From a bacterium (GTDB lineage Bacteria; Bacteroidota; Bacteroidia; Bacteroidales; UBA932), in the NCBI GenBank assembly GCA_963607915.1, contig CAVDEO010000005.1, positions 1 through 43,161 on the forward strand: a stretch of 43,161 nt of DNA, written 5' to 3'. The notes under the pieces are model-generated. The model worked only from the letters and a program-made list of their open reading frames with translations. It had not been told where the DNA came from and ran no database searches. A program made the translations under genes and the position numbers. Every line of letters starts with the position of its first letter. Within the stretch, counting starts at the first letter, position 1. Below are positions 17,926 to 32,646 of the stretch, piece by piece.

Positions 17926-18474
17926 ATGCCAGGAGGCGACGAAACTGCTTTGATTATCCGGCTTTCCCGTGGAGACGAGAGGGCGTTCGGACAACTGTAC
18001 GACCAGTACGGCGGAGTCGCCTATTGCTTTGTCCTCTCCTTTGTCAAAGACGGCCATACCGCCAAGGACATCGTACACGACGCCTTTGTGAAAATCTGGC
18101 TGCGGAGGGAAAGCCTTGCCAGAGTCGCCTCCTTCAGCGCCTATCTTTTCCGTATGCTCAGGAATGCCGTCACCGACCATTTCGAGGCTCAGATTGTCAA
18201 CCGCCGCTACATCGCGGAAACGCTGACATCGTCGGATGACTTTTCCGACATTACCAGCGCGGAGATAAGTTTTGACGAACTTCAGATGATAATCTTCGAT
18301 GCCGTGAGCAATATGCCGCCGCGCCGCCGCGAGGTGTTCAGGCTCAGCCGCTACCAGAATGTGGACAACCGCGAGATTGCCTCACGGCTCGGCATCGACC
18401 TGCGCACGGTCGAGAACCACCTCAGTGCCGCTCTCTCGGAGATACGGACCAAAATCGCCGAATCGTACGCATAA
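17926..18474 (+). CDS. ECF RNA polymerase sigma-70 factor (Bacteroides type)
   Basis: GDERAF.QLY, DIVHDAFVKIW, MPPRRREVFRLSR, EIASRLGI..RTVENHL. Confidence 0.93.
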   Translation: MPGGDETALIIRLSRGDERAFGQLYDQYGGVAYCFVLSFVKDGHTAKDIVHDAFVKIWLRRESLARVASFSAYLFRMLRNAVTDHFEAQIVNRRYIAETLTSSDDFSDITSAEISFDELQMIIFDAVSNMPPRRREVFRLSRYQNVDNREIASRLGIDLRTVENHLSAALSEIRTKIAESYA

Positions 18475-18692: not shown

Positions 18693-19667
18693 ATGAAATA
18701 CCTTCGCATCAGAGAGCTGATAGACTCGTTTGCAGAGAACTATGTGCCCGGACAGGTCCGTTCGGCCTTTGCGTCGTGGTTTCTCGACAGGAAGGACGCG
18801 GCGGAAAAGGAACGGGCTATGGAGGATATCTGGGACGAGATGTCTCTTGGGCGGGATCGCTACGATGCGTCGGATCTGCTGCCGGATGCCGCTGAAGTGC
18901 TCCGTGACGCGAAGGCTGCCGAGAGACCGTCGGAGTTCTCTCAGCTGCGCCGTTGGAAACGCCTCTCCGCCGTGCTGGGCGCTGCGGCCTGCCTGGGACT
19001 CGTACTGAGCACCGCACTCCTGCTGACCGGACGCTCCTCCACGACCACCATACTCTCCACCTCCGACTCAAAGGCACATTTCGCCCTCCCGGACGGCTCG
19101 TCCGTCTGGCTGAACAGGCACAGCACGCTGAGTTACTCCGACAATCTGCGGGGCAAAGTCCGCCGTCTCGACCTCGACGGGGAGGCTTTCTTCGATGTGG
19201 AGAAAGACCCGGAACATCCGTTTGTGGTGAGCACGCGCAATGTCGCGGTCGAAGTGCTGGGAACGAGGTTCACGCTTTCAGCCTACGACTCACGTCCCGA
19301 GAGCGTCTATCTTGAAAGCGGGAAAGTGAGCCTCAGTTCGAAAAGCTTCCCGCAGACGGCTCTGCTACCCGGCGAGGCGTTCACCTTCGACCCCGTTTCC
19401 GGAACTGTCAGCCACCGTAAGGAAAAGGCGGTCAACCACCTGTCCTGGACCGGCGACCGTCTGGAGTTCGCCAACGCCGAACTCGGCGACATAATGACGA
19501 GCCTCGAACACTGGTACAACGTGAAGATAAATATGGACGAGGACGCGGCCTCCGTGCGGCTGACCCTCACCGTGAGAGGGGAGCCGCTTGCGGAGATACT
19601 CAATGCAATTTCGAGGATTTCCGGTCACGGCTACACCATCAACGGGAACGAAATAAGCATACACTGA
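18693..19667 (+). CDS. FecR-family anti-sigma factor
   Basis: Single TM segment, LPDGSSVWLN, LDGEAFFDV, VLGTRF, LEHWYNV. Confidence 0.92.
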   Translation: MKYLRIRELIDSFAENYVPGQVRSAFASWFLDRKDAAEKERAMEDIWDEMSLGRDRYDASDLLPDAAEVLRDAKAAERPSEFSQLRRWKRLSAVLGAAACLGLVLSTALLLTGRSSTTTILSTSDSKAHFALPDGSSVWLNRHSTLSYSDNLRGKVRRLDLDGEAFFDVEKDPEHPFVVSTRNVAVEVLGTRFTLSAYDSRPESVYLESGKVSLSSKSFPQTALLPGEAFTFDPVSGTVSHRKEKAVNHLSWTGDRLEFANAELGDIMTSLEHWYNVKINMDEDAASVRLTLTVRGEPLAEILNAISRISGHGYTINGNEISIH

Positions 19668-19703: not shown

Positions 19704-22700
19704 ATGAAAGGTAAGACGCTGTTGTTCATCACGGCTGCCGTACTTCTCCTTCTGACAAGACCCGCCGGGGCGCAACCTCCGGAGCGGATCAGCGTCAGGA
19801 TGGACAATGTCACGGTGAAAGCCGTTCTGGACAGGATTCAGACGATGACGGATTATGCCTTTTTCTACAACAACACCGAAATCGACGACAGCCGGCTCGT
19901 CTCGGTGGATGTGAAAGAACAGACAATCCCCAATGTACTCTCGCAGATTATACCGGGAGTCAGATGCAGTTTCGACAACAGGAAAATTTTCCTGAGCATT
20001 GAGCCGGCCGAGGCGGAAAGCCAGTCGCAGGCAGCCCGAGGAGGGAAGTTCACCATCCGGGGTACAATCCGGGACGAGAACGGAGAGCCGCTGCCCGGAG
20101 CGAGCGCCGTCGTGAAACAGTCCGGCAAGACCTACGGAAGCGTAGCCGACATCGACGGCAAGTTCATCCTCGAACTTCCTTCAGTTCCGGAACGCGGACA
20201 GAAACTCGAGTTCTCCTGCATAGGCTTCGCCGACATAAGCGAAGCGATTTCAGGCAGGGCGCTTTTCGAGATTCAGATGAAACCTGACAGCGAGCTCCTT
20301 GCCGAGACCGTCGTGGTCGGCTACGGAGTGCAGAAGAAGGTCAACCTCACCGGCGCAGTTTCGGCCGTCACGGCGAAAGACATCGAGAACCGTCCTGTCG
20401 CAACCGTCGGTCAGGCTCTTCAGGGACTCATCCCCAACCTCAATGTCACAATCAGCAGCGGAAGCCCGTCGCAGGAGGCCTCGTTCAACATCCGTGGCAA
20501 CACCTCCCCGAACGGCGGTTCGCCCCTCGTGCTCGTGGACGGGGTGGAGACCAACCTTTCGCGAATCAACCCCAATGACATAGAGTCCATCTCCGTTCTC
20601 AAGGACGCTTCCTCGGCGGCCATCTACGGAGCCCGGGGCGCGTTCGGAGTCATACTCGTCACCACCAAGTCCGGCAAAGCGGACACTCCGCCGCAGGTGA
20701 CGTTCGACGCGCGATACTCCTTCAGCGACAACACCGTAAGCACCGACTTCGAGACCAGGGGATATTACAGCGCCTACATCGCCGACCTCTTTATGTCCAC
20801 CCGTCAGGGAGTTCCGTACACGAGCTACACCGACTACGACTACCAGAGGCTCTGGGAGCGCAGGAACGATGTCACCGAGAATCCCGAGAGGCCCTGGGTC
20901 GTGACCGAGATGAGGAACGGCCAGCTCTCCTATGTCTATCTCGCCAACTTCGACTGGTACAACTGGATGTTCGACGAGACCCGTCCGACGCAGGACTACA
21001 ATGTGAACGTGAGCGGAGGCTCGAAGAATGTCAACTATATGGTCTCCGGACGCTACTACCATCAGGACGGAAACTTCCGCATAGGCAAGGACTATTTCGA
21101 CTCTTACAACGTCAGGGCCAAGACCGATGTCAAGATCCGGCCGTGGCTGCGTCTGTCCACCAATATGCGATACTTCGCCCGGAACTACTACAACGCCAAC
21201 GGAGGCCGTTTCAGGCAGCCGTATATGCACGCTCTCGCCTCTCTCGTGCCGGTGAACCCGGACGGGACGGCGGTCTCCCACACACTGATGACCAACTCGT
21301 CCTCGCACTATGTGATGGACGGCTACAGCGCGATGCTCTACAAGGGCAAGCAGTGGTCAATCAACAAGCGTCAGGAAGTGACCATCTCCTCCACCCTCAC
21401 AGCCGACCTCACGAAACATCTGAAAATGGTTCTCGACTATTCCTACGCCTATCAGGGTTCGGGGACCAAGTACAGGGACACCACCGTGGAATACTCGATG
21501 TACCCGGGCATCATAGCGCAGGAGCCTACGAGCGACTGGAAAGACCGTTATGACGAGATGTCGTCCGCCAAGGATCTGCACGTCGCAAATGCCTATATAT
21601 CATACGAAAACGCCTGGGGGGGGGATAATGACCACAGCTTCACCGGCACGGCCGGCATAAACTACGAGAACTATTCCAAGACGAACATTGAAGTCAGAAG
21701 GGACGACCTCCTCTCCGAGGATATGTCCGACTTCAATCTCGCCGTCGGAAACATCGACAGGCTGACGGGCGGCGTGAACGAATACGAGCTCGCCGGCCTT
21801 TTCTACCGCTTCACCTATTCCTACAAAGGCCGCTATCTCGCCGAGACCAACGGCCGTCTGGACGGCTCCTCACGGTTCCTCAAAGGACATCAGTGGGGTT
21901 TCTTCCCGTCTGCGTCGCTCGCGTGGAGGCTCAGCGAAGAACCTTGGATGGCATCCGCGAAACGCGTGATGAACAACCTCAAGATCCGCGCTTCCTACGG
22001 CTCTCTCGGAAACCAAAACATCGACAATTACGCCTACTACCAGACGGTAAGCACCAGCGGGCATATGAACTACACCCTCGACGGGAAGTCGCACGCCAAT
22101 CACGCCACCGTCTCCGCCCCCGTGTCTTCGGGCACCTGGGAGACCGTCACCTCCGCCGACCTCGGTCTGGACGCCGGCTTCTGGGAGGACAGGCTGACCT
22201 TCACCGGCGATGTCTATGTCCGTGACACCAAAGGCATTCTCACCACAGGCAAGAAACTGCCTTCGACCTACGGCGCGACCGAGCCTCTTGTCAACGCCAA
22301 CGACCTCCGAACTTTCGGCTGGGAGATTCAACTCAGCTGGAAGGACTCCTTCAACATCGGTTCGAGACGTTTCGATTACACCGTCGGCGGTTCGCTCTCC
22401 GACTACAAGGCATGGTACACCCGCTGCGACAACCCTTCAGGAATCCTCAGCGATCCCTATGTGGGCAAACGTCTCGGGGAAATCTGGGGCTTCAGGGTGG
22501 ACGGCCTCTTCGCCAACGACGCCGAGGCTGCGGAATATGCCAGTCAGGTGAATCTCCAGTTCCCGTACAAGTCGGACTATTCGAGCATCGGCGACTACGG
22601 CAAGGGAGTCAGGGGCGGAGACCTCAAATACCTCGACCTCAACGGCGACGGTAAGGTGGACCAGGGACAGAACACCCTCTCCGACCCGGGCGACCGCGTG

Positions 22701-23240
22701 ATTATAGGCAACAGCCAGCCGCGATTCTCCTACGGATTCAATCTCGGGGCTAACTTCTGCGGATTCGACTTCTCCGTCTTCTTTCAGGGCATAGGTCATC
22801 AGGACTGGTATCCGAGCTACGAAAATATGCGTTTCTGGGGCCCTTACTGCCGGCCTTACTGCTCGTTCGTGGGACGCGACTTTATGAAGAACGTCTGGTC
22901 CGAGACCAACACCGACGCCTATTTCCCGAGGGCGAGGGGCTATGCCGCGCTCAACGGAATGGTTTACTACACCAACGACCGCTACCTTCAGAACCTCGCC
23001 TACATCCGTCTCAAGAACCTGAGTTTCGGATATTCCCTGCCTGAGAAGCTGCTCTCGAAGATAAGGCTCTCCGGGCTGCGGGTCTATTTCGCCGGCGAGA
23101 ACCTCTGGTACTGGTCGCCGCTGAAGAAAATCAACAGGTATGTCGATCCGGAGCATCTCTCCAGCAACGGGAACAGCTCCACCGCCGACACCTACACGTT
23201 CTACAAGACTTTCAGCTTCGGCGTCACCGTTAAATTTTAG
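19704..23240 (+). CDS. susC: SusC/RagA TonB-dependent transporter with N-terminal STN signalling domain
   Basis: VVVGYGVQKK, ISVLKDASSAAIYGARGAFGVILVTTK plug motif, DGSSRF, C-terminal Phe. Confidence 0.96.
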   Translation: MKGKTLLFITAAVLLLLTRPAGAQPPERISVRMDNVTVKAVLDRIQTMTDYAFFYNNTEIDDSRLVSVDVKEQTIPNVLSQIIPGVRCSFDNRKIFLSIEPAEAESQSQAARGGKFTIRGTIRDENGEPLPGASAVVKQSGKTYGSVADIDGKFILELPSVPERGQKLEFSCIGFADISEAISGRALFEIQMKPDSELLAETVVVGYGVQKKVNLTGAVSAVTAKDIENRPVATVGQALQGLIPNLNVTISSGSPSQEASFNIRGNTSPNGGSPLVLVDGVETNLSRINPNDIESISVLKDASSAAIYGARGAFGVILVTTKSGKADTPPQVTFDARYSFSDNTVSTDFETRGYYSAYIADLFMSTRQGVPYTSYTDYDYQRLWERRNDVTENPERPWVVTEMRNGQLSYVYLANFDWYNWMFDETRPTQDYNVNVSGGSKNVNYMVSGRYYHQDGNFRIGKDYFDSYNVRAKTDVKIRPWLRLSTNMRYFARNYYNANGGRFRQPYMHALASLVPVNPDGTAVSHTLMTNSSSHYVMDGYSAMLYKGKQWSINKRQEVTISSTLTADLTKHLKMVLDYSYAYQGSGTKYRDTTVEYSMYPGIIAQEPTSDWKDRYDEMSSAKDLHVANAYISYENAWGGDNDHSFTGTAGINYENYSKTNIEVRRDDLLSEDMSDFNLAVGNIDRLTGGVNEYELAGLFYRFTYSYKGRYLAETNGRLDGSSRFLKGHQWGFFPSASLAWRLSEEPWMASAKRVMNNLKIRASYGSLGNQNIDNYAYYQTVSTSGHMNYTLDGKSHANHATVSAPVSSGTWETVTSADLGLDAGFWEDRLTFTGDVYVRDTKGILTTGKKLPSTYGATEPLVNANDLRTFGWEIQLSWKDSFNIGSRRFDYTVGGSLSDYKAWYTRCDNPSGILSDPYVGKRLGEIWGFRVDGLFANDAEAAEYASQVNLQFPYKSDYSSIGDYGKGVRGGDLKYLDLNGDGKVDQGQNTLSDPGDRVIIGNSQPRFSYGFNLGANFCGFDFSVFFQGIGHQDWYPSYENMRFWGPYCRPYCSFVGRDFMKNVWSETNTDAYFPRARGYAALNGMVYYTNDRYLQNLAYIRLKNLSFGYSLPEKLLSKIRLSGLRVYFAGENLWYWSPLKKINRYVDPEHLSSNGNSSTADTYTFYKTFSFGVTVKF

Positions 23241-23243
23241 GAA

Positions 23244-24980
23244 ATGAAAAGGATATTACCATATATTATATGTCTTCTGGCTGCGGCGGCTCTTGCCGTC
23301 TCCTGCGAAGATTTTCTCGTCAGGACGCCGAAAGACAAGGTCACTCCGGAAACCTATTTCACCGACGAGACGGACTGTGAACTCTATACGAACGAGTTCT
23401 ATCTCATATTCCCAGGAGCGTCGTCCGTCTATGGCGAATCTGCCGACTACATCTACACGACCACCGTCTCCGATGTGGCGAGGGGCACGAGGCTCGTCCC
23501 GTCCTCTTCGTCGCTCTGGAATTGGGACCGTCTGCGCGACATCAACTTCTTCCTCGAACACGCCGACCAGTGCGCAGATCTTGCCGTAAGAAACAGATAT
23601 ATAGCCCTCTCACGCTTCTTCCGAGCATATTTCTATTTCGACAAAATCCGCTATTACGGCGACGTTCCCTGGATAGACCGGACTTTCACGGCCCAGGACG
23701 AAGGCCTCTACAACGGAAGGGACGACAGGAAATATGTCTTCACCAGAATGCTGGAGGACATCGACTTCGCCATCGAGCATCTCTGGACGACGAAATCCGC
23801 CTACACCGTCACGAAATGGACGGCTTTGGCCCTGAAGAGCCGTATGTGCCTCTTCGAGGGGACTTTCCGGAAATATCACGGCATCGAAGGCTGGGAGGAA
23901 GTGCTTGAAGCCGGGGTCGACGCTTCGACGAAGTTCATAAAGGAATCGGGATATTCCATCTACACCGGCGGTTCCGAGCCGTACAGGAGCCTCTTCAACT
24001 CCCAGAGCGCGAACACGACCGAGGTCATCCTCGCCCGCGCCTACAATTCGAGCCTCGGACTCGTCCACGACGTGAACGGCTTCTTCACCTCCCCGACTAT
24101 GGGTCGCAGCGGTCTCGCCAAGGATGTGGTGAATATGTACCTGATGGCCGACGGCACGCGGTTCACCGACAAGCCGGGCTACGAGACTATGACCTTCATC
24201 GAGGAGACAGCATCGAGAGACCCGCGTCTCGCCCAGTCCATCAGGACACCGGGATATACGAGGCTGGGCTCCACAGCGAAGAGCGCCCCGAATTTCGCAG
24301 CCTGCATAACCGGCTATCAGATAACGAAATATGTCTGCGCCGCCCAATTCGACTCCTACAATTCCTCCGAGAACGATATGCCGATTTTCCGCACGGCCGA
24401 GGTCTATCTCAACCACGCGGAGTCCCTTGCCGAACTCGGCACGCTCACGCAGACCGAACTTGACAGGAGCATAAACAAGATAAGGGGAAGGGTGGGTATG
24501 CCTTCGCTCGATCTGGAAGCGGCGAACTCAAATCCCGACCCGTATCTGTCCGACCCTGTCACGGGCTACACCGGGGTCACCGGCCCGAACGCCGGTGTCA
24601 TTCTCGAAATCCGGCGCGAAAGGACCGTGGAACTGCTCAGCGAGGGGTTCAGGTACTGGGATCTTATGAGATGGAAAGCCGGCAAGAGGTTCGAGCGGCC
24701 ATATTACGGAATGTATTTCCCGTCAGCCGGCTCCTACGACCTCGACTCCGACGGCAGCACGGATCTGGTGATATATTCCGGAACCAAACCCGACGAGAAG
24801 GAAGGAGTGGTCTATATGTCGCTCAGCGAGGCCAACCTCTCCGAAAAAACCTCCGGCTACCTCACCATACATTCCGACATAGAACGGAACTGGAACGAGG
24901 ACAGGGACTATCTCTACCCGATTCCGACCGACGAGATAACCCTCACCTACGGAAACATCAAGCAAAATCCCAACTGGTAG
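23244..24980 (+). CDS. susD: SusD/RagB lipoprotein
   Basis: Lipobox AVSC, RFFRAYFYF...YGDVP, FRTAEVYLN.AE, RRER.VEL..EGFRYWDLMRW, QNPNW. Confidence 0.95.
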   Translation: MKRILPYIICLLAAAALAVSCEDFLVRTPKDKVTPETYFTDETDCELYTNEFYLIFPGASSVYGESADYIYTTTVSDVARGTRLVPSSSSLWNWDRLRDINFFLEHADQCADLAVRNRYIALSRFFRAYFYFDKIRYYGDVPWIDRTFTAQDEGLYNGRDDRKYVFTRMLEDIDFAIEHLWTTKSAYTVTKWTALALKSRMCLFEGTFRKYHGIEGWEEVLEAGVDASTKFIKESGYSIYTGGSEPYRSLFNSQSANTTEVILARAYNSSLGLVHDVNGFFTSPTMGRSGLAKDVVNMYLMADGTRFTDKPGYETMTFIEETASRDPRLAQSIRTPGYTRLGSTAKSAPNFAACITGYQITKYVCAAQFDSYNSSENDMPIFRTAEVYLNHAESLAELGTLTQTELDRSINKIRGRVGMPSLDLEAANSNPDPYLSDPVTGYTGVTGPNAGVILEIRRERTVELLSEGFRYWDLMRWKAGKRFERPYYGMYFPSAGSYDLDSDGSTDLVIYSGTKPDEKEGVVYMSLSEANLSEKTSGYLTIHSDIERNWNEDRDYLYPIPTDEITLTYGNIKQNPNW

Positions 24981-24986
24981 TCAATT

Positions 24987-27248
24987 ATGAAAAAGCCGAT
25001 ATATCTTTTGACAACTCTTCTGCTGGCGGCCATCTCCTGCAAAAAGGAAGTGGCTCTGCCGATGCAGATCATAAATCCGGACAGGGAGAGCATAGTCGCC
25101 CCCTCTTTCGGAGCGGATTATGAAATAAACGTAGTCTCCAACACCGCATGGGAACTTGACGCCATCGCCGAGAACTGGCTGACCTCCGCATTCGAGGAGG
25201 CGGTCGGAAACTCCGGTTTCACTCTCACGGTGTCTGCCAACGACGGGGTGGAGCGCAGCGCGGAGATCGTGCTCCGCAGTGCGGACGGCAATCTGAGCAG
25301 AAAGATTGAAATCACCCAGCTCTCCGGAAACGGGGACGGGCCGCTCCCGCTGTCAGCAGTGAGGGCTATGGAGAAAAAGGGTTCGTCCTATGTGTTCCCG
25401 ACCGGGAATATCGCGGGATTCGTCTCCATCGACAGGGAGAACGGAAATTATCCTCTCAACACCGTCTTCATTCAGGACAGTTTCACTCAGAAGTCGAGCG
25501 GAATCGCCGTCTGCTGCGAGGATATGCCCGCATTTGACTTCGGTATGCAGATGTCCCTCGACCTTGCCGGGGCGACGTTGAAGCGTTCCGAAGACGGAGT
25601 GCTCACTCTCTATCCGGCGGAGATGCCGGCGACAGGGGAGTGCAGCCCTCTGGAAATCGTCCCGCCGGTTCTCGAATATGGGGAGCTCGCAACCGGGAAC
25701 TATGAATCTATGCTGGTCAAACTCAACAAGTTCCAGCCTGTTGCGGACTATGTCGACAAGGAGTTCGGCTCAAGCCCGGTCGTGGAGAACAGGTCGGGTC
25801 AGCAGGTGAAACTTACCGTCAAGGCCGACGCTCTGTTTTCCGAGGCCACCTACAACAAGGGCAGCGGAACGGTCTGCGGCATCGCTGTGGCTAAGTCCGA
25901 CGGCCGGCCTTCACTCCGCCCGCAGAACACCGACGCGGTCAAGTTCGGCAAGTTCCGCATTGGGGAGCTACCAGGCATAAAGTCGCTTCCTTACGCCTTT
26001 TCTTTCTACTGCGACATCCACAACAGCAAGACCAATGCGGCCGAGATGAAATACACCGACTACACGCCGCTGACCTGGATGGCCGCCACAAAAACCATTT
26101 CAGGCATAGTCGCGACTGAGAAGGACGAGAACATAGGCTCTTATCTCGAGATGACCGCCTACGCCTCCGACCTCAGCAAGACTCTCTCCGGCAAGGGGCA
26201 GACCAACTGCTGGTCCGAACCGGGCGGCAACGACAACATCAACACCGCCGGTTTCGTGTCGCCTGACAGCAAGACCACGCCGAGCGCCGAGTGCGGATGG
26301 TGGCTCACCGTCCCTCTCCAGACCGACCTCCCGTCCAAGTTCAACGTAATCTTCGGACTCGCGGGCGCGGACTGGAGCATCAACCGCTGGAAACTCTCCT
26401 ATTCGCACGACGGCAACAACTGGATCGAGTCCGGTGATGTCACTTTGGGCCACGCCTGCTCTGGCGGAAGCTACTACTACCGTTTCTGCGTCACCGTCAC
26501 TCCGGACTCTCCGTTCGAGGCCGACAACAACCTCCACCTCAAGCTGACTCCTAGCGGGACTGACGGCTGCAACCCGAGCAACTTCAACGCGGACGGTCAC
26601 GGCTCAAGCTGCTACATCCGTCTGCATTCCGCGATAATCCTGCAGGATGCGACCGAACAGTCCACCGCAGTTCCTGAAGGCGCGGTGCTCTTCGAGCCGT
26701 TCGACAAGCTCACACAGGGCGCGGACTGGTTCTACGGCGACCGCAACGCCGCGCTCGCGAACTACTGCGGCTCGAAAATCACGGTCTGGAAATCCGATCA
26801 GTCGAGGGGTATGACGGGAACGGAGGTATATGAGCGCCCGGGATACGCCCAGATCGGTTTCGTGAACGACGAGACGACGGGTTCAAGACAGAAATATGAA
26901 GGAGTCAAGGGCAGCCTGACCACCGCGCCTCTCGGACAGGCGGGCGACTTCACCCTCAGTTTCAAGGCTGCGGCGTTCAGAACCCCTGCGAACCGTCCGG
27001 GAGAGAACTCCACAGTCCCGGATATCATCTCTCCGGACATCACGGAGGCTGTCGTCACAGTCAATGGCGGAGGCACAATCAACGGGGCGACTTCAGTAAA
27101 GGTCAGCGCTCTGCCGACGGACTACCGCTGGAAAAACTACAGTTTCAGCATCAAGGGGGCGACCGCCGCGACCACAATCACGTTCACCAGCGCTCCGGCG
27201 GAAGGACAGTTCTCACGCTGGTTCATAGATGAAATACTTGTAAAATAA
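24987..27248 (+). CDS. Surface lipoprotein: BACON + DUF5689-like + uncharacterised C-terminal module
   Basis: Lipobox AISC, VSNTAW...NWL...N...R BACON pattern, YESMLV motif; C-terminal ~425 aa paralogous to 28978-31302. Confidence 0.7.
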   Translation: MKKPIYLLTTLLLAAISCKKEVALPMQIINPDRESIVAPSFGADYEINVVSNTAWELDAIAENWLTSAFEEAVGNSGFTLTVSANDGVERSAEIVLRSADGNLSRKIEITQLSGNGDGPLPLSAVRAMEKKGSSYVFPTGNIAGFVSIDRENGNYPLNTVFIQDSFTQKSSGIAVCCEDMPAFDFGMQMSLDLAGATLKRSEDGVLTLYPAEMPATGECSPLEIVPPVLEYGELATGNYESMLVKLNKFQPVADYVDKEFGSSPVVENRSGQQVKLTVKADALFSEATYNKGSGTVCGIAVAKSDGRPSLRPQNTDAVKFGKFRIGELPGIKSLPYAFSFYCDIHNSKTNAAEMKYTDYTPLTWMAATKTISGIVATEKDENIGSYLEMTAYASDLSKTLSGKGQTNCWSEPGGNDNINTAGFVSPDSKTTPSAECGWWLTVPLQTDLPSKFNVIFGLAGADWSINRWKLSYSHDGNNWIESGDVTLGHACSGGSYYYRFCVTVTPDSPFEADNNLHLKLTPSGTDGCNPSNFNADGHGSSCYIRLHSAIILQDATEQSTAVPEGAVLFEPFDKLTQGADWFYGDRNAALANYCGSKITVWKSDQSRGMTGTEVYERPGYAQIGFVNDETTGSRQKYEGVKGSLTTAPLGQAGDFTLSFKAAAFRTPANRPGENSTVPDIISPDITEAVVTVNGGGTINGATSVKVSALPTDYRWKNYSFSIKGATAATTITFTSAPAEGQFSRWFIDEILVK

Positions 27249-27254
27249 CATATT

Positions 27255-28184
27255 ATGAGGAAAATTATAGCATTCATAATCGCGCTTGCGGCGTTCAACG
27301 GCTGCCTGAAAGCCGACAACTCGATGTACATCCCCGCCTACGGCCAGAACAAGAGCGACGACAAGGGTTCGGACATCGACGACACCATCGTCCAGGACAC
27401 CGTCGAAGACGGGGAACTCAAAGTTATGTCGTTCAATGTCAGGCTGAAGACCTCCGAAAAGAACGAAGAGAACAACTGGGATGTCCGCAAGTACGCGGTC
27501 ACTGATATCATCTACAAGGAGAACCCGACTGTCTTCGGCGTGCAGGAGGCTCTTCTGGAGCAGCTCGCCTACATACGGAGCCAGAGTCCTGATTACGAAG
27601 ATGTAGGCGTGGGCCGTGACGACGGGCAGAACGCCGGCGAGCATATGAACATATTCTACAACACCAAGCGAGTCAAGCTTGAGAGCTGGGGACGCTTCTG
27701 GCTTTCTGACACGCCGGACAAGCCGTCCTATGGCTGGGGTGAGGCCTACCGTAGGCTTGCAGTCTGGGCGCTGTTCACCGATCTTGCCACTTCGGAGAAG
27801 TTCTTCTATATGAACACCCACGGGCCGCTCAATCCGGATGCCAATTACTACGCTCTCCAGCTCATCGCAAGGCAGCTCTCCGTACTCAACCCGGACGGCT
27901 GCCCGGCAATCCTTACCGGCGACTTCAACATCACGGCTGACAACACGAACTTCGCCGCGATACGCAAGCTTATGAAGAACGCCAACGAAATCGGGGATGA
28001 TCCGAAGAATCTCAGGGACACCCAGAATACCTACAACGGCTGGGGCGGCGGAAGCGGTATCATCGATTTCATCTGGTACAGCGACTTCAACTCCGTCAAG
28101 TCCTACCGGGTGGTGACGGATGTCTATCGCAAGATCCGTTATCCTTCAGACCATTATCCGATTGTCGCCACGCTGGTTTTCTGA
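27255..28184 (+). CDS. Endonuclease/exonuclease/phosphatase (EEP) family lipoprotein
   Basis: VMSFNVR, GVQEA, GVGRDDG, FWLSDTPD, NTH, TGDFN, IDFI, PSDHYP; lipobox-like FNGC. Confidence 0.92.
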   Translation: MRKIIAFIIALAAFNGCLKADNSMYIPAYGQNKSDDKGSDIDDTIVQDTVEDGELKVMSFNVRLKTSEKNEENNWDVRKYAVTDIIYKENPTVFGVQEALLEQLAYIRSQSPDYEDVGVGRDDGQNAGEHMNIFYNTKRVKLESWGRFWLSDTPDKPSYGWGEAYRRLAVWALFTDLATSEKFFYMNTHGPLNPDANYYALQLIARQLSVLNPDGCPAILTGDFNITADNTNFAAIRKLMKNANEIGDDPKNLRDTQNTYNGWGGGSGIIDFIWYSDFNSVKSYRVVTDVYRKIRYPSDHYPIVATLVF

Positions 28185-28269: not shown

Positions 28270-28785
28270 ATGAAAATTACCGAACTGATTCTGGGCGCAC
28301 TGCCGGCGCTGCTGCTGGCGGCCTGCGCCAAGCCTTCCGAGTCGGTCCCTGTCACGGGTGTCAGCCTGTCTCCCGACAAAGTCGAACTTGTCAAGGGAGG
28401 CACGGAGACGCTCACGGCGACGGTGACACCTGCCGACGCCACTGACGGGACTCTGATCTGGGAAAGCGGCGATCCGTCGGTCGTCTATGTCAAGGACGGC
28501 AAACTGCTGGCTCTGGCCGTGGGCGAGGCGGACGTCACCGTCACCACTGTTGACGGCGGGTTCACGGCGGTCTGCAAGGTCACCGTCAAAGACGATGGCT
28601 CCGACCCTGACCCTGATCCTGACCCTGACCCTGACCCTGACCCTGACCCTGACCCTGACCCTGACCCCGACCCTGACCCAGATCCTGACCCTGACCCTGA
28701 CCCTGACCCGGAACCCGAGCCTGATCCGACAACGGGGGAGTCCACGCACGAGGGGTTTGAACCCGATGAAGTTCAATGGAAATAA
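28270..28785 (+). CDS. Lipoprotein with Big_2 Ig-like domain, (DP)n linker and conserved C-terminal tail
   Basis: Lipobox LAAC; VPVTGVSL...LTATVTPADAT...W.S.D...VTTVDGGFTAVCKVTV; 21 [DE]P units; tail GESTHEGFEPDEVQWK. Confidence 0.88.
   Translation: MKITELILGALPALLLAACAKPSESVPVTGVSLSPDKVELVKGGTETLTATVTPADATDGTLIWESGDPSVVYVKDGKLLALAVGEADVTVTTVDGGFTAVCKVTVKDDGSDPDPDPDPDPDPDPDPDPDPDPDPDPDPDPDPDPDPEPEPDPTTGESTHEGFEPDEVQWK
28603..28728 (+). repeat. Hexanucleotide repeat (GACCCT)n encoding (DP)18-EPEP-DP
   Basis: Read directly from the sequence. Confidence 0.95.
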
Positions 28786-28797
28786 AACTTGAAATCA

Positions 28798-28950
28798 ATG
28801 AAAGACAAAGGAAACCACAACGGAGGATATATGGCCCCGGACATCGAGGTCATATCCTGGAAACTGACCGAGGCTCTCTGCACCGGCTACTCGACATTGC
28901 AGGAGTCCTCGCACGAAGATTATCAGACAACTGATTTCGTTTGGAATTAA
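28798..28950 (+). CDS. Unannotated 50-aa peptide MKDKGNHNGGYMAPDIEVISWKLTEALCTGYSTLQESSHEDYQTTDFVWN
   Basis: ATG 12 nt after the upstream stop, stop 27 nt before the next ATG, AT-rich leader; YxxPxI motif; C-terminus aligns with the tail of the upstream gene; absent from the ORF track, apparently too short. Confidence 0.8.
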   Translation: MKDKGNHNGGYMAPDIEVISWKLTEALCTGYSTLQESSHEDYQTTDFVWN

Positions 28951-28977
28951 TAACCATTCAAACAAAGAAAACTTGAT

Positions 28978-31302
28978 ATGAAAAAGAATAATATCGTTTT
29001 TGCGGCTCTGCTCTCGGCCGCGGCATTGGTCTCCTGCCAGAAAGAGATTGAGCAGACCCCGGACTCACGGGAGGAAAACGGGACTGAGACGGTTGAAGGC
29101 CTGACCTTCAAGGCGGTGGCCGATGAAATCACCAGGACGGACATAGACGCTTCTACAGGCGCGGTGACCTGGACCAAATGGGATGCGATTTCCCTTTTTG
29201 ACGGAACGGGAGCCGCACACAAACTCGACGGCTACACCAAGGACAAGAAATATGTGAACACCCTTGGAGCCGGAACGACTGCGATTTTCAAGCCGAGCAC
29301 TGAAGACGACCGCGCGGTTGAGGGCAAGGCTAAATACTACGCGATGTGCCCGAGGGACGGTGACGCCTGCTGCGATGTGGAGAACGGAGTCTTCGATTTC
29401 TGGCTGATAGACTGTCAGAAGGGTAACAAGGACGGATTCTCCTATGTCCGCACGGTGGATGGCCGGCATATGAACTATTCAGTGGCGATGACCACCGACC
29501 CTGAAAACAATCCGCTCGTTTTCAAGAACGCGGTCACGCAGCTCAAAATCACAGTGCCGGAGTTTCTCGACGGCAAGGTGACCCACATCGCCATAATCCC
29601 GCTCGGCGGAGAGTACATCGCAGGTGACACCGAAGTCGTTCTCGGAGAAGACGGCAACATCACCACTGTGGTCGGACGTTATGCCTACAACGACAACGGT
29701 ACAGGCTCGAAATATCAGGCGGTCTATCTTTTCCCGGACATCAACACCGACCGCTATGCAATCACCGGGGCGACATTCGAAGCCGGAACCTACTATGCCG
29801 CCATCCGCAATGCCACCCTCAGCAAGGGACTGCTCATAGAGTACAGGACGACTAAGTCCGGAAGTGCGCAAAACGCTACATCGGTGGACGCGATTGCGAC
29901 AAAGAGCACGAGCTTGACAACGACTCTCGAGAGGGCGCACCTCTACAATATGGGTTCAATCGGCGACACTCCGTCAAAGGCGTCCGCAGGGGTCGGAGTG
30001 ACATCCCTGCCATACAGTTTCTCGTTCTACTGCGCCACCGCGAACAACGATGACGGTAAATACATAACCAAGGGTTCTCTCTCGGAAACGGTACACACAA
30101 TGGTTGACGGAGCATATTCCGGCAATGTGTATAAGCAGTATTCCGGAGTTGCCGCAACGGAAAAGGACGAGACTGTCGGGGCGAGTCTGTCGCTCTCTGC
30201 GGTCACCTACTACAAGGCAGGTTCAACCGAAAAGTCTGCTAACAAAGTGTTCAATTTCTGGGCGCAGAATACTCAGGCACACGACAATCTCAACACAAGA
30301 AATATGTGCACCAGATACGGCATCGGCGGTCTTCCGTTCGAATGCGGAGAATTTCTCACGATTCCGCTTCAGACGGATATTCCTTCGGCATTTACTGTTT
30401 CTTTCGGAATTTATTATGCCGGTTCCTGGGGGATGAAAAACTGGAATGTCTATTATTCCAATGACAATGTCTCCTGGATAAGGGCGGGTGAAACCGTCGA
30501 ACTGACAAATGTCGGGGCAAGCGGGAAATACTATATGTATTTTCAGGTTAAGGAGAATAATTGCCCTATAGCCCTCAAAAAGGGTGGAATGCTGTATCTG
30601 AAGATAGTCCCTGTCGGGAAAGCATCCAAGGAGAGCACAAGTTGCGACGGCTTCGGCGCAGAAAATTCAGGTACCGGACAGCATCGTCTCCATTCTTCGA
30701 TAACCATATCTCCGGCTGAAGTGAAGGCAAGTACAGCCGAGTCCGGGGCAGTTCTTTTTGAAGGCTTCGACAGCTTCAACGGAGGTCTTGACTACTTCGT
30801 CGGTGACAGGCTTGCCGGTATGGCGAACTTCTGCGGTGCGGAGGCTTCACTTTCCGGATATGCGCTCGGCAATGTCTATCAGCGCCCGGGCTATGCCCAG
30901 ATAGGATATGTGGATTCGCAGACGATGGCAAGTGATGGCGATATGACCACGACGAACCTCCTCGGTTCGCTCATCACTCCGGCACTCGGCAAGGCCGGCG
31001 ATCTAAGACTCAGTTTCAAGGCCTGCGCCTACCGCTCGCCTGCAAGCGGTAGAACGAACGCGCCGGACAAGCCGAATACAGACTGCACCACCCCTGACCT
31101 CACCACCATACGTCTCAACATCACCGGTGGCGGCACAATCGACGGCGCGACGACGATCGACATCGAAAATGTCTCAGTGAGCGGGTGGCAGACCATAACG
31201 AAGACCATCACCGGAGCGACGGCCGACACCAAAGTCGAGTTCACCTCTCCGACTGACGGCCTCTTCCACCGCTGGTTCCTCGACGACATCTGCGTGAAGT
31301 AG
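28978..31302 (+). CDS. Fimbrillin/type V pilin-like lipoprotein with C-terminal putative ligand-binding module (tip adhesin-like)
   Basis: Lipobox LVSC; LTFKA...TRT...W...DAISLF...YYAMCP...Q...LVFKN...LKITV pattern typical of Bacteroidales fimbrillin N-domains; C-terminal module shared with 24987-27248. Confidence 0.7.
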   Translation: MKKNNIVFAALLSAAALVSCQKEIEQTPDSREENGTETVEGLTFKAVADEITRTDIDASTGAVTWTKWDAISLFDGTGAAHKLDGYTKDKKYVNTLGAGTTAIFKPSTEDDRAVEGKAKYYAMCPRDGDACCDVENGVFDFWLIDCQKGNKDGFSYVRTVDGRHMNYSVAMTTDPENNPLVFKNAVTQLKITVPEFLDGKVTHIAIIPLGGEYIAGDTEVVLGEDGNITTVVGRYAYNDNGTGSKYQAVYLFPDINTDRYAITGATFEAGTYYAAIRNATLSKGLLIEYRTTKSGSAQNATSVDAIATKSTSLTTTLERAHLYNMGSIGDTPSKASAGVGVTSLPYSFSFYCATANNDDGKYITKGSLSETVHTMVDGAYSGNVYKQYSGVAATEKDETVGASLSLSAVTYYKAGSTEKSANKVFNFWAQNTQAHDNLNTRNMCTRYGIGGLPFECGEFLTIPLQTDIPSAFTVSFGIYYAGSWGMKNWNVYYSNDNVSWIRAGETVELTNVGASGKYYMYFQVKENNCPIALKKGGMLYLKIVPVGKASKESTSCDGFGAENSGTGQHRLHSSITISPAEVKASTAESGAVLFEGFDSFNGGLDYFVGDRLAGMANFCGAEASLSGYALGNVYQRPGYAQIGYVDSQTMASDGDMTTTNLLGSLITPALGKAGDLRLSFKACAYRSPASGRTNAPDKPNTDCTTPDLTTIRLNITGGGTIDGATTIDIENVSVSGWQTITKTITGATADTKVEFTSPTDGLFHRWFLDDICVK

Positions 31303-31321
31303 TCACATTTTTAGGTCAATC

Positions 31322-31435
31322 TGCACTGCTTTTTGTGCGCTTTTTATGAAAAATGCACTGAAAGCAGTGCATTTTTGCAGAATTTTGCACCGAAAGCAGT
31401 GCATTTTTGCAAGATTCTGCACTGTTTTCAGTGCA
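31322..31435. promoter_or_regulatory. Four palindromic boxes TGCACTG-N4-CAGTGCA at exact 32-bp period (operator-like array)
   Basis: Starts 31322 (right half degenerate), 31354, 31386, 31418; followed by -7 box TATATTTG at 31443-31450. Confidence 0.75.
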
Positions 31436-31470
31436 GAATTGCTATATTTGCGGCGTAAACATCAGAAGAT

Positions 31471-32646
31471 ATGGATAATCTGCTACAGTCTCACAAGCTT
31501 CGCCTTGATATGGCGCCGACCGCTTATGTCCGTTCCTTTCACGACACCATCAATTGGAAGAACCGGCTGATAGGCATTCTCGGACAGAAAGGGGTCGGGA
31601 AATCGACGATGATGCTCCAGCACATAAAGCTTTATGACAAGCCGGGGGAGTCCCTTTATGTACAGTCCGACGATTTCTACTTTGCGGGGCATCGCCTCTA
31701 CGATCTTGCACTGAACTTCTTTCAGAACGGAGGGAGACGGCTTTATGTCGATGAAATCCATAAATATCCCGGATGGTCCACGGAGATAAAGATGATATAT
31801 GACCAGATTCCTCTGCTCAGCATCGTCTATTCCGGAAGTTCGATACTCGACCTGCGGAAGGGAGGGAAGGCGGATTTGAGCCGCAGGGCGCTTGAATACA
31901 CGATGCCGATTCTTTCGTTCCGGGAATATCTCAACATTTCCCTGGGCTGGTCGCTCGGGACATCCCCGCTTGATGAAATCCTTGCCGGGAGGGTCGATTT
32001 CCCCTACGGAGAGCACCGTCCGATAAAGTACTATCGGGACTATCTCCGGCAGGGCTGCTACCCCTATTTTTCCGAGGAGGATTTCCCGGTGAAACTGAAA
32101 CAGGCGGTCAACGCGACGGTGGAGGACGACATTCCGAAATATGCTGAGATGACAGTCGCCGCGTCCGCCAAACTCAAGAAGCTGATGTATATGCTTGCGA
32201 TGTCGGTTCCGTACAAACCGAACTATGCCACGCTTGCCCGTGACCTCGACATCAGCCGGAACACTCTTCCGGACTATGTCGAGTGTCTGGAGAAATCCGG
32301 ACTTTTCAATGCGCTCCGGGAGAAATCCACGGGTGACGGCCTGCTTCAGAAAATCGAGAAGCTCTATCTCAACAACGCGAACATAATCTACGCACTCGGT
32401 GCGGAGAACGCCGATGAGGGGACAATCCGCGAGACGATGTTTCTTGCGTGGATGAAAGAGCGGTACTCTGTATATTCCTCAAAAATCTCCGATTTCGAAA
32501 TAGACGGCATCACCTTCGAAGTCGGTGGTAAGAACAAGAAAGGCCGTCAGCTGAAGGATGCCGGCTCCGGCATCATCGTGAAGGATGACATCGAGTATGC
32601 CGTCGGAAAGTGCGTGCCGATCTGGATGTTCGGCTTTGTGTATTGA
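31471..32646 (+). CDS. AAA_14-family ATPase with HTH and C-terminal nuclease-like region
   Basis: GQKGVGKST, YVDEIHKY, YSGSS, ADLSRR, LARDLDISRNTL (HTH), DF..D...FEVGGKNK. Confidence 0.88.
   Translation: MDNLLQSHKLRLDMAPTAYVRSFHDTINWKNRLIGILGQKGVGKSTMMLQHIKLYDKPGESLYVQSDDFYFAGHRLYDLALNFFQNGGRRLYVDEIHKYPGWSTEIKMIYDQIPLLSIVYSGSSILDLRKGGKADLSRRALEYTMPILSFREYLNISLGWSLGTSPLDEILAGRVDFPYGEHRPIKYYRDYLRQGCYPYFSEEDFPVKLKQAVNATVEDDIPKYAEMTVAASAKLKKLMYMLAMSVPYKPNYATLARDLDISRNTLPDYVECLEKSGLFNALREKSTGDGLLQKIEKLYLNNANIIYALGAENADEGTIRETMFLAWMKERYSVYSSKISDFEIDGITFEVGGKNKKGRQLKDAGSGIIVKDDIEYAVGKCVPIWMFGFVY

Follow-up and report, generated by a model that had tools for sequence, protein, structure and literature searches.

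The window analysed here covers positions 1 to 43,161 of contig CAVDEO010000005.1 (forward strand; assembly GCA_963607915.1), which is contig C5 of a 2.65-Mb Bacteroidales genome that is 95% complete. Three adjacent forward-strand genes in this window form the subject of the work, namely a lipoprotein with an Ig-like Big_2 domain, a micropeptide of 50 residues and a surface lipoprotein of 774 residues. The first gene (28270-28785, 171 aa, lipobox Cys19) encodes a Big_2 domain at residues 27-104 (28348-28581, E-value 1.2e-14), an Asp-Pro (DP) spacer specified at 28603-28724 by 20.3 copies of GACCCT with 88% matches, and a micropeptide-like tail ESTHEGFEPDEVQWK at 28738-28782; it shows no pilin fold. 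Slippage in the GACCCT array could alter the length of the repeat. The micropeptide gene (28798-28950) runs from the ATG at 28798 to the stop codon at 28948-28950, with an alternative in-frame TTG at 28789. A gene caller placed its start at an internal Met codon at 28831, giving 39 aa, and the peptide is on record in this form in the protein collection. The peptide comprises a family block from Tyr11 to Ser30 (28828-28887) and a tail formed by residues 29-50 (28882-28947). The third gene (28978-31302) encodes a lipoprotein signal MKKNNIVFAALLSAAALVSC with the lipobox cysteine at position 20, followed by a type V pilin-like module and cargo domains. The pilin-like module was assigned by fold comparison to residues 40-330 (29095-29967) and contains Arg53 in a T-R53-T sequence (29134-29136); a jelly-roll domain resembling carbohydrate-binding modules (CBMs) was assigned by structure comparison to residues 342-585 (30001-30732).

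The C-termini of the Big_2 lipoprotein and the micropeptide match each other. The former ends in ...TTGESTHEGFEPDEVQWK (also written ...GESTHEGFEPDEVQWK) and the 50-aa open reading frame (ORF) in ...QESSHEDYQTTDFVWN, and the underlying DNA contains the matching strings GAGTCCACGCACGA at 28738 and GAGTCCTCGCACGA at 28903, with 13 of 14 bases identical at the start of the two tails. This likeness in both protein and DNA had been pointed out in an earlier sequence-only reading of the window, and its sequences and coordinates were borne out. The ungapped BLOSUM62 score between the two C-terminal 16-mers is 33. Scoring of the micropeptide 16-mer against 12,248 C-termini of this genome (stop-to-stop frames of at least 80 aa) gave a mean of -15.2 with a standard deviation of 7.6; the Big_2 lipoprotein alone reached 33, with the runner-up at 22. 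In addition, the end motif [ED][DGEL][FY].{5,8}W[NKDEQST], a narrow form kept by 2 of the 14 frames that pass a looser pattern, occurs solely in these two adjacent frames of the 2.65-Mb genome. The match between the tails is beyond chance.

A search among 60 relatives with the 50-aa ORF as a single sequence yielded weak matches alone (E-values 0.1-0.8). One of them, from a genome of the same genus (G026), is a frame of 46 codons that occupies the equivalent position, immediately 5' of a lipoprotein gene, and was taken as the profile seed. The window ORF and this positional homologue can be aligned as proteins, and the alignment of their DNA is poor; conservation therefore lies at the protein level and not at the RNA or DNA level. 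Searching 301 genomes of the bacterial family with the profile of the two sequences revealed many small open frames, 27 of which were inspected. They share the block Y-x-[SA]-P-E-h-E-h-h-x-h-x-h-E-x-G-F-[AC]-x-S (consensus YxSPEIEVIExxxEKGFAxS), in which the Tyr and Pro are invariant and the Ser nearly so. The block is followed by a short, variable tail rich in Gly, Ser, Asp, Glu and Asn, usually with a Trp, Phe or Tyr near the end; an aromatic residue is found among the last four positions in 13 of 22 micropeptides versus 74 of 4,517 frames of at least 150 aa. The sequence-only reading had laid its stress on the tail; across the family the conserved part is instead the N-terminal "leader" block. 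The micropeptide profile detects neither the Big_2 tails nor canonical pilin C-termini, and fusions of the whole peptide to longer proteins may be rare, as one match at an E-value of 1 or below was obtained among 8,000 candidates scored, probably from an over-long ORF call.

The substitution pattern gives clear indication of purifying selection on the family. The ratio of non-synonymous to synonymous substitution rates (dN/dS) is 0.15 between two orthologues of the window ORF (L051 and L052). The pair L023 and L043 shows a proportion of synonymous differences (pS) of 0.80 and of non-synonymous differences (pN) of 0.16, and the pair L040 and L041 differs by three synonymous and no non-synonymous changes. 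The earlier proposal would have fallen with an unconserved small ORF, and the ORF is conserved. Counted with a 47-sequence profile at an E-value of 1e-3 or below, carriers number 80 among the 150 genomes of the same bacterial family with a completeness of at least 90%; they span 13 of 29 genera and have up to 13 copies per genome. In an even, order-wide sample 12 of 300 genomes are carriers, including 3 of 3 from the own family, and in a phylum-wide sample 2 of 400. In a collection of 5.8 billion proteins the profile matches 297 clusters at an E-value of 10 or below, about 113 of them at 1e-3 or below, with lengths of 35-75 aa; the names given are all "hypothetical protein" and none of the clusters bears a Pfam domain. 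The 24 aligned family members have no Pfam-A or NCBIfam family in common at an E-value of 1 or below, no curated family model was matched, and the closest ESM Atlas clusters are all unnamed. Literature searches with four motif strings, and for small proteins together with fimbrillin or Bacteroidales, gave nothing relevant among the matches listed, and we have not found this family of 35-60-residue peptides from gut-type Bacteroidales described.

The micropeptide genes are closely paired with surface lipoprotein genes. With a larger profile, 22 members were found in the window's own genome (a further row with an E-value of 6.5 and no motif was excluded), one of them at a contig end. In all 21 members that could be judged, the downstream gene starts at -29 to +44 nt. 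These downstream genes encode 20 lipoproteins (19 recognized by regular expression and one by eye), which measure 477-993 aa where complete, and one secreted protein resembling the endonuclease/exonuclease/phosphatase (EEP) family. The latter follows its micropeptide on contig C82 (9842-10051, reverse strand) and belongs to the same enzyme family as the product of 27255-28184 in the window. The Pfam model Mfa_like_1 ("Fimbrillin-like") matches 19 places in the genome at an E-value of 0.01 or below, ten of which are micropeptide partners; six of the ten score over the cut-off, two of these only when their neighbours are included in the frame. A profile of the N-terminal domain recovers 15 frames, including nine partners. 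By one or the other measure 14 of the 20 partners are pilin-like. On contig C10, three tandem pilins of canonical size (359-397 aa) stand without a micropeptide.

A similar arrangement was found elsewhere. In 23 of the 27 loci inspected in other genomes, the gene downstream encodes a lipoprotein with the N-terminal pattern [ST]-[KR]-[TSA]...W..[DN].h, in one case 429 nt away; four of the 23 are mutual orthologues and two are near-identical. The remaining four loci have a lipoprotein without the pattern (by inspection), a secreted non-lipoprotein, a radical S-adenosylmethionine (SAM) enzyme, and no ORF that could be found. Among eight loci taken from other families and another order or class, six show the pairing as well. 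An enrichment of such ORFs ahead of fimbrillin-type genes, for which the sequence-only reading had suggested searching, is thus present, whereas its picture of a "minimal pilus" at a single locus gives way to a multi-copy module spread over the genome. We regard the existence of the gene family and of its pairing as nearly certain.

Three loci outside the own genome have unusual surroundings. At L031 (contig C10 of G311) two pilin genes of canonical appearance (C-termini ...VTITDWQPIVGEDIDIQ) immediately precede the micropeptide gene, and a gene for a pilin-like lipoprotein starts about 430 nt 3' of it; members of the family can therefore be part of an ordinary type V pilus cluster. At L066 (3449-8830, contig C28 of G079, from another genus), a micropeptide/lipoprotein pair follows, on the same strand, genes for a 295-aa protein without a family, a 151-aa S24-like peptidase and a 546-aa ATP-binding cassette (ABC) exporter, which form a candidate processing and export set. 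At L045/L065 (5992-7684, contig C4 of G333), the same block carries a Cys-rich tail and lies directly 5' of a radical SAM enzyme (PF04055, E-value about 1e-14; Fer4_12), with a PKD-domain protein adjacent.

Neither the 774-aa protein nor the 50-aa ORF matches any Pfam or NCBIfam model, and the partner was compared by structure. Its AlphaFold2 model has a predicted local distance difference test (pLDDT) score of 73, with most of residues 40-340 at 85-95. Superposition of residues 40-330 with VIA-align against Bacteroides structures annotated as putative cell adhesion or fimbrial proteins gave a Z score of 12.7 for 3t2l (222 aa, root-mean-square deviation 4.7), 12.4 for 4k4k, 11.6 for 3ufi, 9.4 for 4h40 and 8.7 for 4eps, a "fimbrial protein". 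The partner profile also matches 3ufi by sequence (E-value 9.5e-5). As the Foldseek search with the whole protein was dominated by the CBM-like domains, the pilin-like domain was modelled alone (pLDDT 81) and searched again, with 16 matches at an E-value of 1e-3 or below; those listed at ranks 1 to 15 are all Bacteroidales fimbrial or adhesion proteins. They include 3ufi (3.5e-7), the fimbrial protein 3sy6 (8e-7) and the tip fimbrial protein Mfa3 (5nf4, 5.7e-4), and the FimA prepilin (6jzk, 4.5e-3) and Mfa4 (5dhm, 9.9e-3) matched more weakly. The "cell adhesion" structures of the Joint Center for Structural Genomics are reported to belong to the type V pilin superfamily (Xu et al. 2016). On the strength of these models the N-terminal module is assigned the type V pilin fold, a fold whose lack would have told against the earlier proposal.

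In the model of the 774-aa protein, the predicted anchor strand is formed by residues 44-48 and is followed by T-R53-T in a loop of low pLDDT. A Lys or Arg is present at or beside the R53 column in 23 of 24 aligned pilin-like partners. After the pilin-like module come about 440 aa of CBM-like and other domains, with no C-terminal donor strand; residues 342-585 superimpose on CBM15, CBM22 and CBM35 with VIA-align Z scores of 8-9.7 and have no Pfam match. The sequence-only reading had recognized a fimbrillin-like N-terminal domain with a TR/T site, in agreement with the structural comparisons and the alignment. It had seen no stalk or Mfa2-type anchor pilin, and likewise the Pfam models Mfa_like_1, FimA (P_gingi_FimA) and Mfa2 have no match on the window contig. 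Because they combine a pilin fold, an anchor strand and a Lys/Arg site with the lack of a donor strand, the partner proteins look like tip-type acceptors fused to cargo domains.

A complex was modelled between the module without its anchor strand (residues 54-345) and the 50-aa peptide, each with its own alignment. The interface score (ipSAE) is 0.87 (runs 0.89, 0.87 and 0.87), versus 0.00 for the best of three controls. Of 157 solved complexes, 116 attain the score mark that this model passes, as do 2 of 215 mismatched pairs; since own alignments were supplied for the model, these figures apply to it only approximately. The runs share at least 92% of contacts, and the pLDDT of the partner is at least 55. 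The confident interface links residues 29-50 of the peptide with residues 54-65, 100-115, 168-189 and 309-326 of the pilin module, spanning both sub-domains. The closest pairs, 320-325 with 42-47 and 181-184 with 38-42, rise together, a pattern that we interpret as parallel pairing of the peptide beside the last strand of the module. The model supports binding of the tail in the groove left by the anchor strand, as had been supposed for the free peptide.

The tail of the Big_2 lipoprotein recurs in related loci. In the two closest orthologous loci, where the 774-aa protein is 69-70% identical, the Big_2 lipoproteins have a second Big_2 domain in the place of the DP spacer and end in GGHDDFISDEIDW and DGHDDFITDEIDW, of the form G-x-H-[DE]-[DG]-F...W. 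The micropeptides of these loci end in ...SENEDLIFEDFFA and ...AENEDLIVEDFFE; an ungapped alignment of these with the window sequence SSHEDYQTTDFVWN shows E-D and D-F in common. The Big_2 gene is missing from a third locus that is more distant. In the own genome a second lipoprotein with multiple Big_2 domains (contig C91, 7043-9423, forward strand) ends in ...SGGTEKTEEEPWN or, as also given, ...CTVTVRTEMSGGTEKTEEEPWN (final residues EEEPWN); its gene runs into the start of a gene for a pilin-like lipoprotein, and no micropeptide intervenes. A Trp in the last four residues together with at least four Asp or Glu in the last 14 is found in 8 of 4,517 frames of at least 150 aa, both Big_2 proteins included. 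Since the micropeptide profile misses the Big_2 tails, the likeness of the C91 tail is compositional only. The presence of these tails on Sec-exported lipoproteins makes it most likely that the tail works extracytoplasmically. The block is confined to the free peptides and absent from the Sec-exported Big_2 forms, and for this reason it may be the element that delivers the peptide.

To our knowledge, the folds of type V pilins, which build pili by protease-mediated donor-strand exchange, are completed solely by strands of other pilins. We likewise know of no described stand-alone donor peptide encoded in a genome, and our literature searches turned up none. In chaperone-usher pili, a short strand supplied in trans completes an Ig-like fold, and synthetic donor-strand peptides are used in the laboratory. 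The natural donors there are periplasmic chaperones or subunits, unlike a free peptide. For type V pili, the Mfa1 cryo-electron microscopy report (PMC13655056) describes lipoproteins that are held by an N-terminal anchor strand and cut after an Arg in the next loop; donor strands from the C-terminus of the subunit that comes next then take the place of the anchor strand, with betaC parallel to beta13. The partner shares with the FimA and Mfa1 systems its lipoprotein nature, the pilin fold of two sandwiches, the anchor strand at the N-terminus and the Lys/Arg site in the loop after it. The modelled peptide takes the donor-strand place, parallel to the last strand of the module, in line with the betaC/beta13 pairing in that report (PMC13655056). 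According to the same report, tip pilins have no donor strands and the anchor pilin no cleavage site (PMC13655056), and the 774-aa partner resembles the tip pilins Mfa4 and Mfa5 described there in having no donor strand (PMC13655056). In contrast to type V pili, the locus holds no gene for a stalk or anchor pilin and has SusC, SusD, DUF5689 and EEP genes as neighbours, the donor would be either a free peptide of 50 aa or an Ig-domain lipoprotein that is no pilin, and the pilin module bears CBM-like cargo, with about 20 pairs per genome. The anchor pilins Mfa2 and FimB are described as lipid-anchored and without a cleavage site, and as providing the final subunit with a donor strand from their C-terminus (PMC13655056). 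Like them, the Big_2-(DP)n lipoprotein is anchored by lipid, and it has a spacer and a C-terminal tail; it differs in consisting of a Big_2 Ig domain and a DP spacer instead of a pilin fold, and a donor role of its tail is putative.

Based on these likenesses and the complex model, we tentatively propose a donor-strand mechanism. The 50-aa ORF, a member of the large micropeptide family, would be a translated gene, and each micropeptide would probably be translationally coupled to the surface lipoprotein downstream. The N-terminal module of that lipoprotein would serve as a type V pilin-like acceptor; it possesses the anchor strand, the Lys/Arg site and the groove, lacks a donor strand, and is fused to cargo, here the CBM-like domains in a SusC/SusD locus. 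Cutting at Arg53 would remove the anchor strand and vacate the groove. The acidic, aromatic-ended tail of the peptide (residues 29-50) would then fill the groove as a stand-alone donor strand, leaving the lipoprotein stabilized and capped and its lipid anchor lost. The Big_2-(DP)n lipoprotein could present the same strand tethered to lipid, like the Mfa2/FimB anchor in true pili, and the N-terminal block, absent from the Big_2 forms, might serve the delivery or processing of the free peptide. The mechanism as a whole we hold to be a serious possibility with not quite an even chance of being right, and the interpretation reached in the sequence-only reading stood up to each test made here and is partly supported.

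A bolder form of the proposal, which we consider doubtful, would give each Bacteroidales genome dozens of donor-strand peptides, one per pilin-domain lipoprotein. A Sec-independent leader would export them and the tail would displace the lipid-bearing anchor strand, so that the free peptide leaves the cargo capped and released and the Big_2 tail keeps it tethered. If true, this would amount to a new switch by which peptides decide whether surface proteins stay anchored or are released, and to a new route of peptide export. Already the basic mechanism, in which a free genome-encoded peptide and a non-pilin lipoprotein with the same tail act as donors, would widen strand exchange from the building of pili to ordinary surface proteins, including the nutrient-binding proteins of utilization loci in abundant gut bacteria. 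Whatever the mechanism, the data define a widespread, multi-copy and unannotated micropeptide family with a fixed genomic partner, whose members are missed or given wrong starts by gene callers, as with the window copy called as 39 aa.

Several observations weigh against the donor-strand proposal. The pilin-like module of the 774-aa protein is unmatched by any Pfam fimbrillin model, cleavage after Arg53 is a prediction from a conserved site, and the pilin-like modules may be mere stalks of surface glycan-binding proteins. The open groove was made by removing the anchor strand before modelling, and the passing score may in part be memory of solved type V donor-strand complexes, which would speak for likeness and not for binding. 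The family block (residues 11-30) lies outside the confident interface, which leaves the most conserved feature of the peptide unexplained. In the orthologous loci the micropeptide tail (..SENEDLIFEDFFA) is less like the Big_2 tail than it is in the window, and 6 of the 15 pilin-like genes found by the N-domain profile have no micropeptide. Finally, the micropeptides have no signal peptide, lipobox or twin-arginine motif, although the proposed partner folds outside the cytoplasm. No Peptidase_C39 transporter was found in the own genome at its 95% completeness, and the ABC exporter and S24-like peptidase of L066 (G079) have no close homologue there (best 28% identity).

The peptide could instead be an exported or processed, leader-bearing product, comparable to ribosomally synthesized and post-translationally modified peptides (RiPPs) or to a signal, with the block as leader and the tail as product, in which case adjacency to the lipoprotein gene would reflect co-regulation and not binding. 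Like RiPP and bacteriocin precursors, the micropeptides are small, combine a conserved N-terminal block with a hypervariable C-terminal part and have no Sec signal. The member L045, whose Cys-rich tail is encoded beside a radical SAM enzyme, hints that the block may be a leader in the RiPP sense, and the pair that follows an S24-like peptidase and an ABC exporter in another genus fits as well. However, 20 of 21 members in the own genome precede a lipoprotein gene and adjoin no maturase or peptidase-transporter; a radical SAM neighbour occurs in 1 of 27 loci elsewhere; and no double-glycine (C39) transporter was found in the genome. The tails are of low complexity and acidic, mostly without the Cys, Ser and Thr patterns of modified cores, and this reading would not account for the occurrence of the tail on both Big_2 lipoproteins as well. 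We therefore consider this explanation unlikely. A purely cis-acting upstream ORF, the translation of which opens or couples the lipoprotein gene while the peptide has no function in trans, would fit the spacing of -29 to +44 nt with its several overlaps. It is quite unlikely, since the amino acids are conserved and the DNA is not (dN/dS 0.15, synonymous sites saturated), and since members from different families and classes retain one particular block of 20 residues although coupling requires no given peptide sequence.

An intracellular role, in which the peptide acts on the unexported lipoprotein or its regulation (as a holder before export or a sensor of export failure) and the fit to the groove is generic, would agree with the lack of an export signal and of a detected exporter, and with probable 1:1 production of peptide and partner through tight coupling. 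Sec substrates, however, cross the membrane unfolded and with the anchor strand attached, and no folded groove is expected in the cytoplasm; the same tail on Sec-exported Big_2 lipoproteins likewise points to an extracytoplasmic site, and we judge an intracellular role improbable. The match of the tails could also be a by-product of local duplication or gene conversion, with the window ORF as a relic. The 13 of 14 identical bases at the start of the tails and the lesser likeness of the orthologous tails are in keeping with such an event. The ORF, however, belongs fully to a family that evolves under purifying selection, orthologues retain the Big_2 tail, and a second Big_2 lipoprotein of this kind precedes another pilin-like gene. 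The relic explanation is largely refuted by the family data and seems extremely unlikely.

The genes upstream of the Big_2 lipoprotein are all on the forward strand and encode an extracytoplasmic function (ECF) sigma factor (17926-18474), a FecR-like anti-sigma factor (18693-19667), SusC (19704-23240), a SusD-like protein (23244-24980), a lipoprotein with BACON and DUF5689 domains (24987-27248) and a secreted EEP-family protein (27255-28184; PF03372, E-value 1.2e-11). Judged by this gene content, the locus is a SusC/SusD utilization locus. Like the surface glycan-binding proteins of polysaccharide utilization loci, the 774-aa lipoprotein is encoded 3' of SusC/SusD and has CBM-like domains. We know of no described surface glycan-binding protein of this kind with a micropeptide gene, and the literature searches turned up none. 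The last 450 aa of the 774-aa protein are 37% identical to those of its BACON/DUF5689 neighbour (E-value 1e-76), and the last approximately 115 residues of the DUF5689 protein weakly match the surface endonuclease model NF052644 (E-value 2.8e-7, far below the cut-off). The BACON and DUF5689 lipoprotein and the paralogous 774-aa protein are grouped with a secreted EEP-family enzyme in one utilization locus, the substrate of which might be nucleic acid instead of glycan.

In the gap after the 774-aa gene (31303-31470), the short hairpin TGCACTG-(4 nt)-CAGTGCA occurs at least four times and a 33-nt sequence is directly repeated at a spacing of 96 nt; the gap precedes a gene for an AAA_14/DUF4143 ATPase (31471-32646). 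These hairpins and the repeat may be terminators or a small repeated element.

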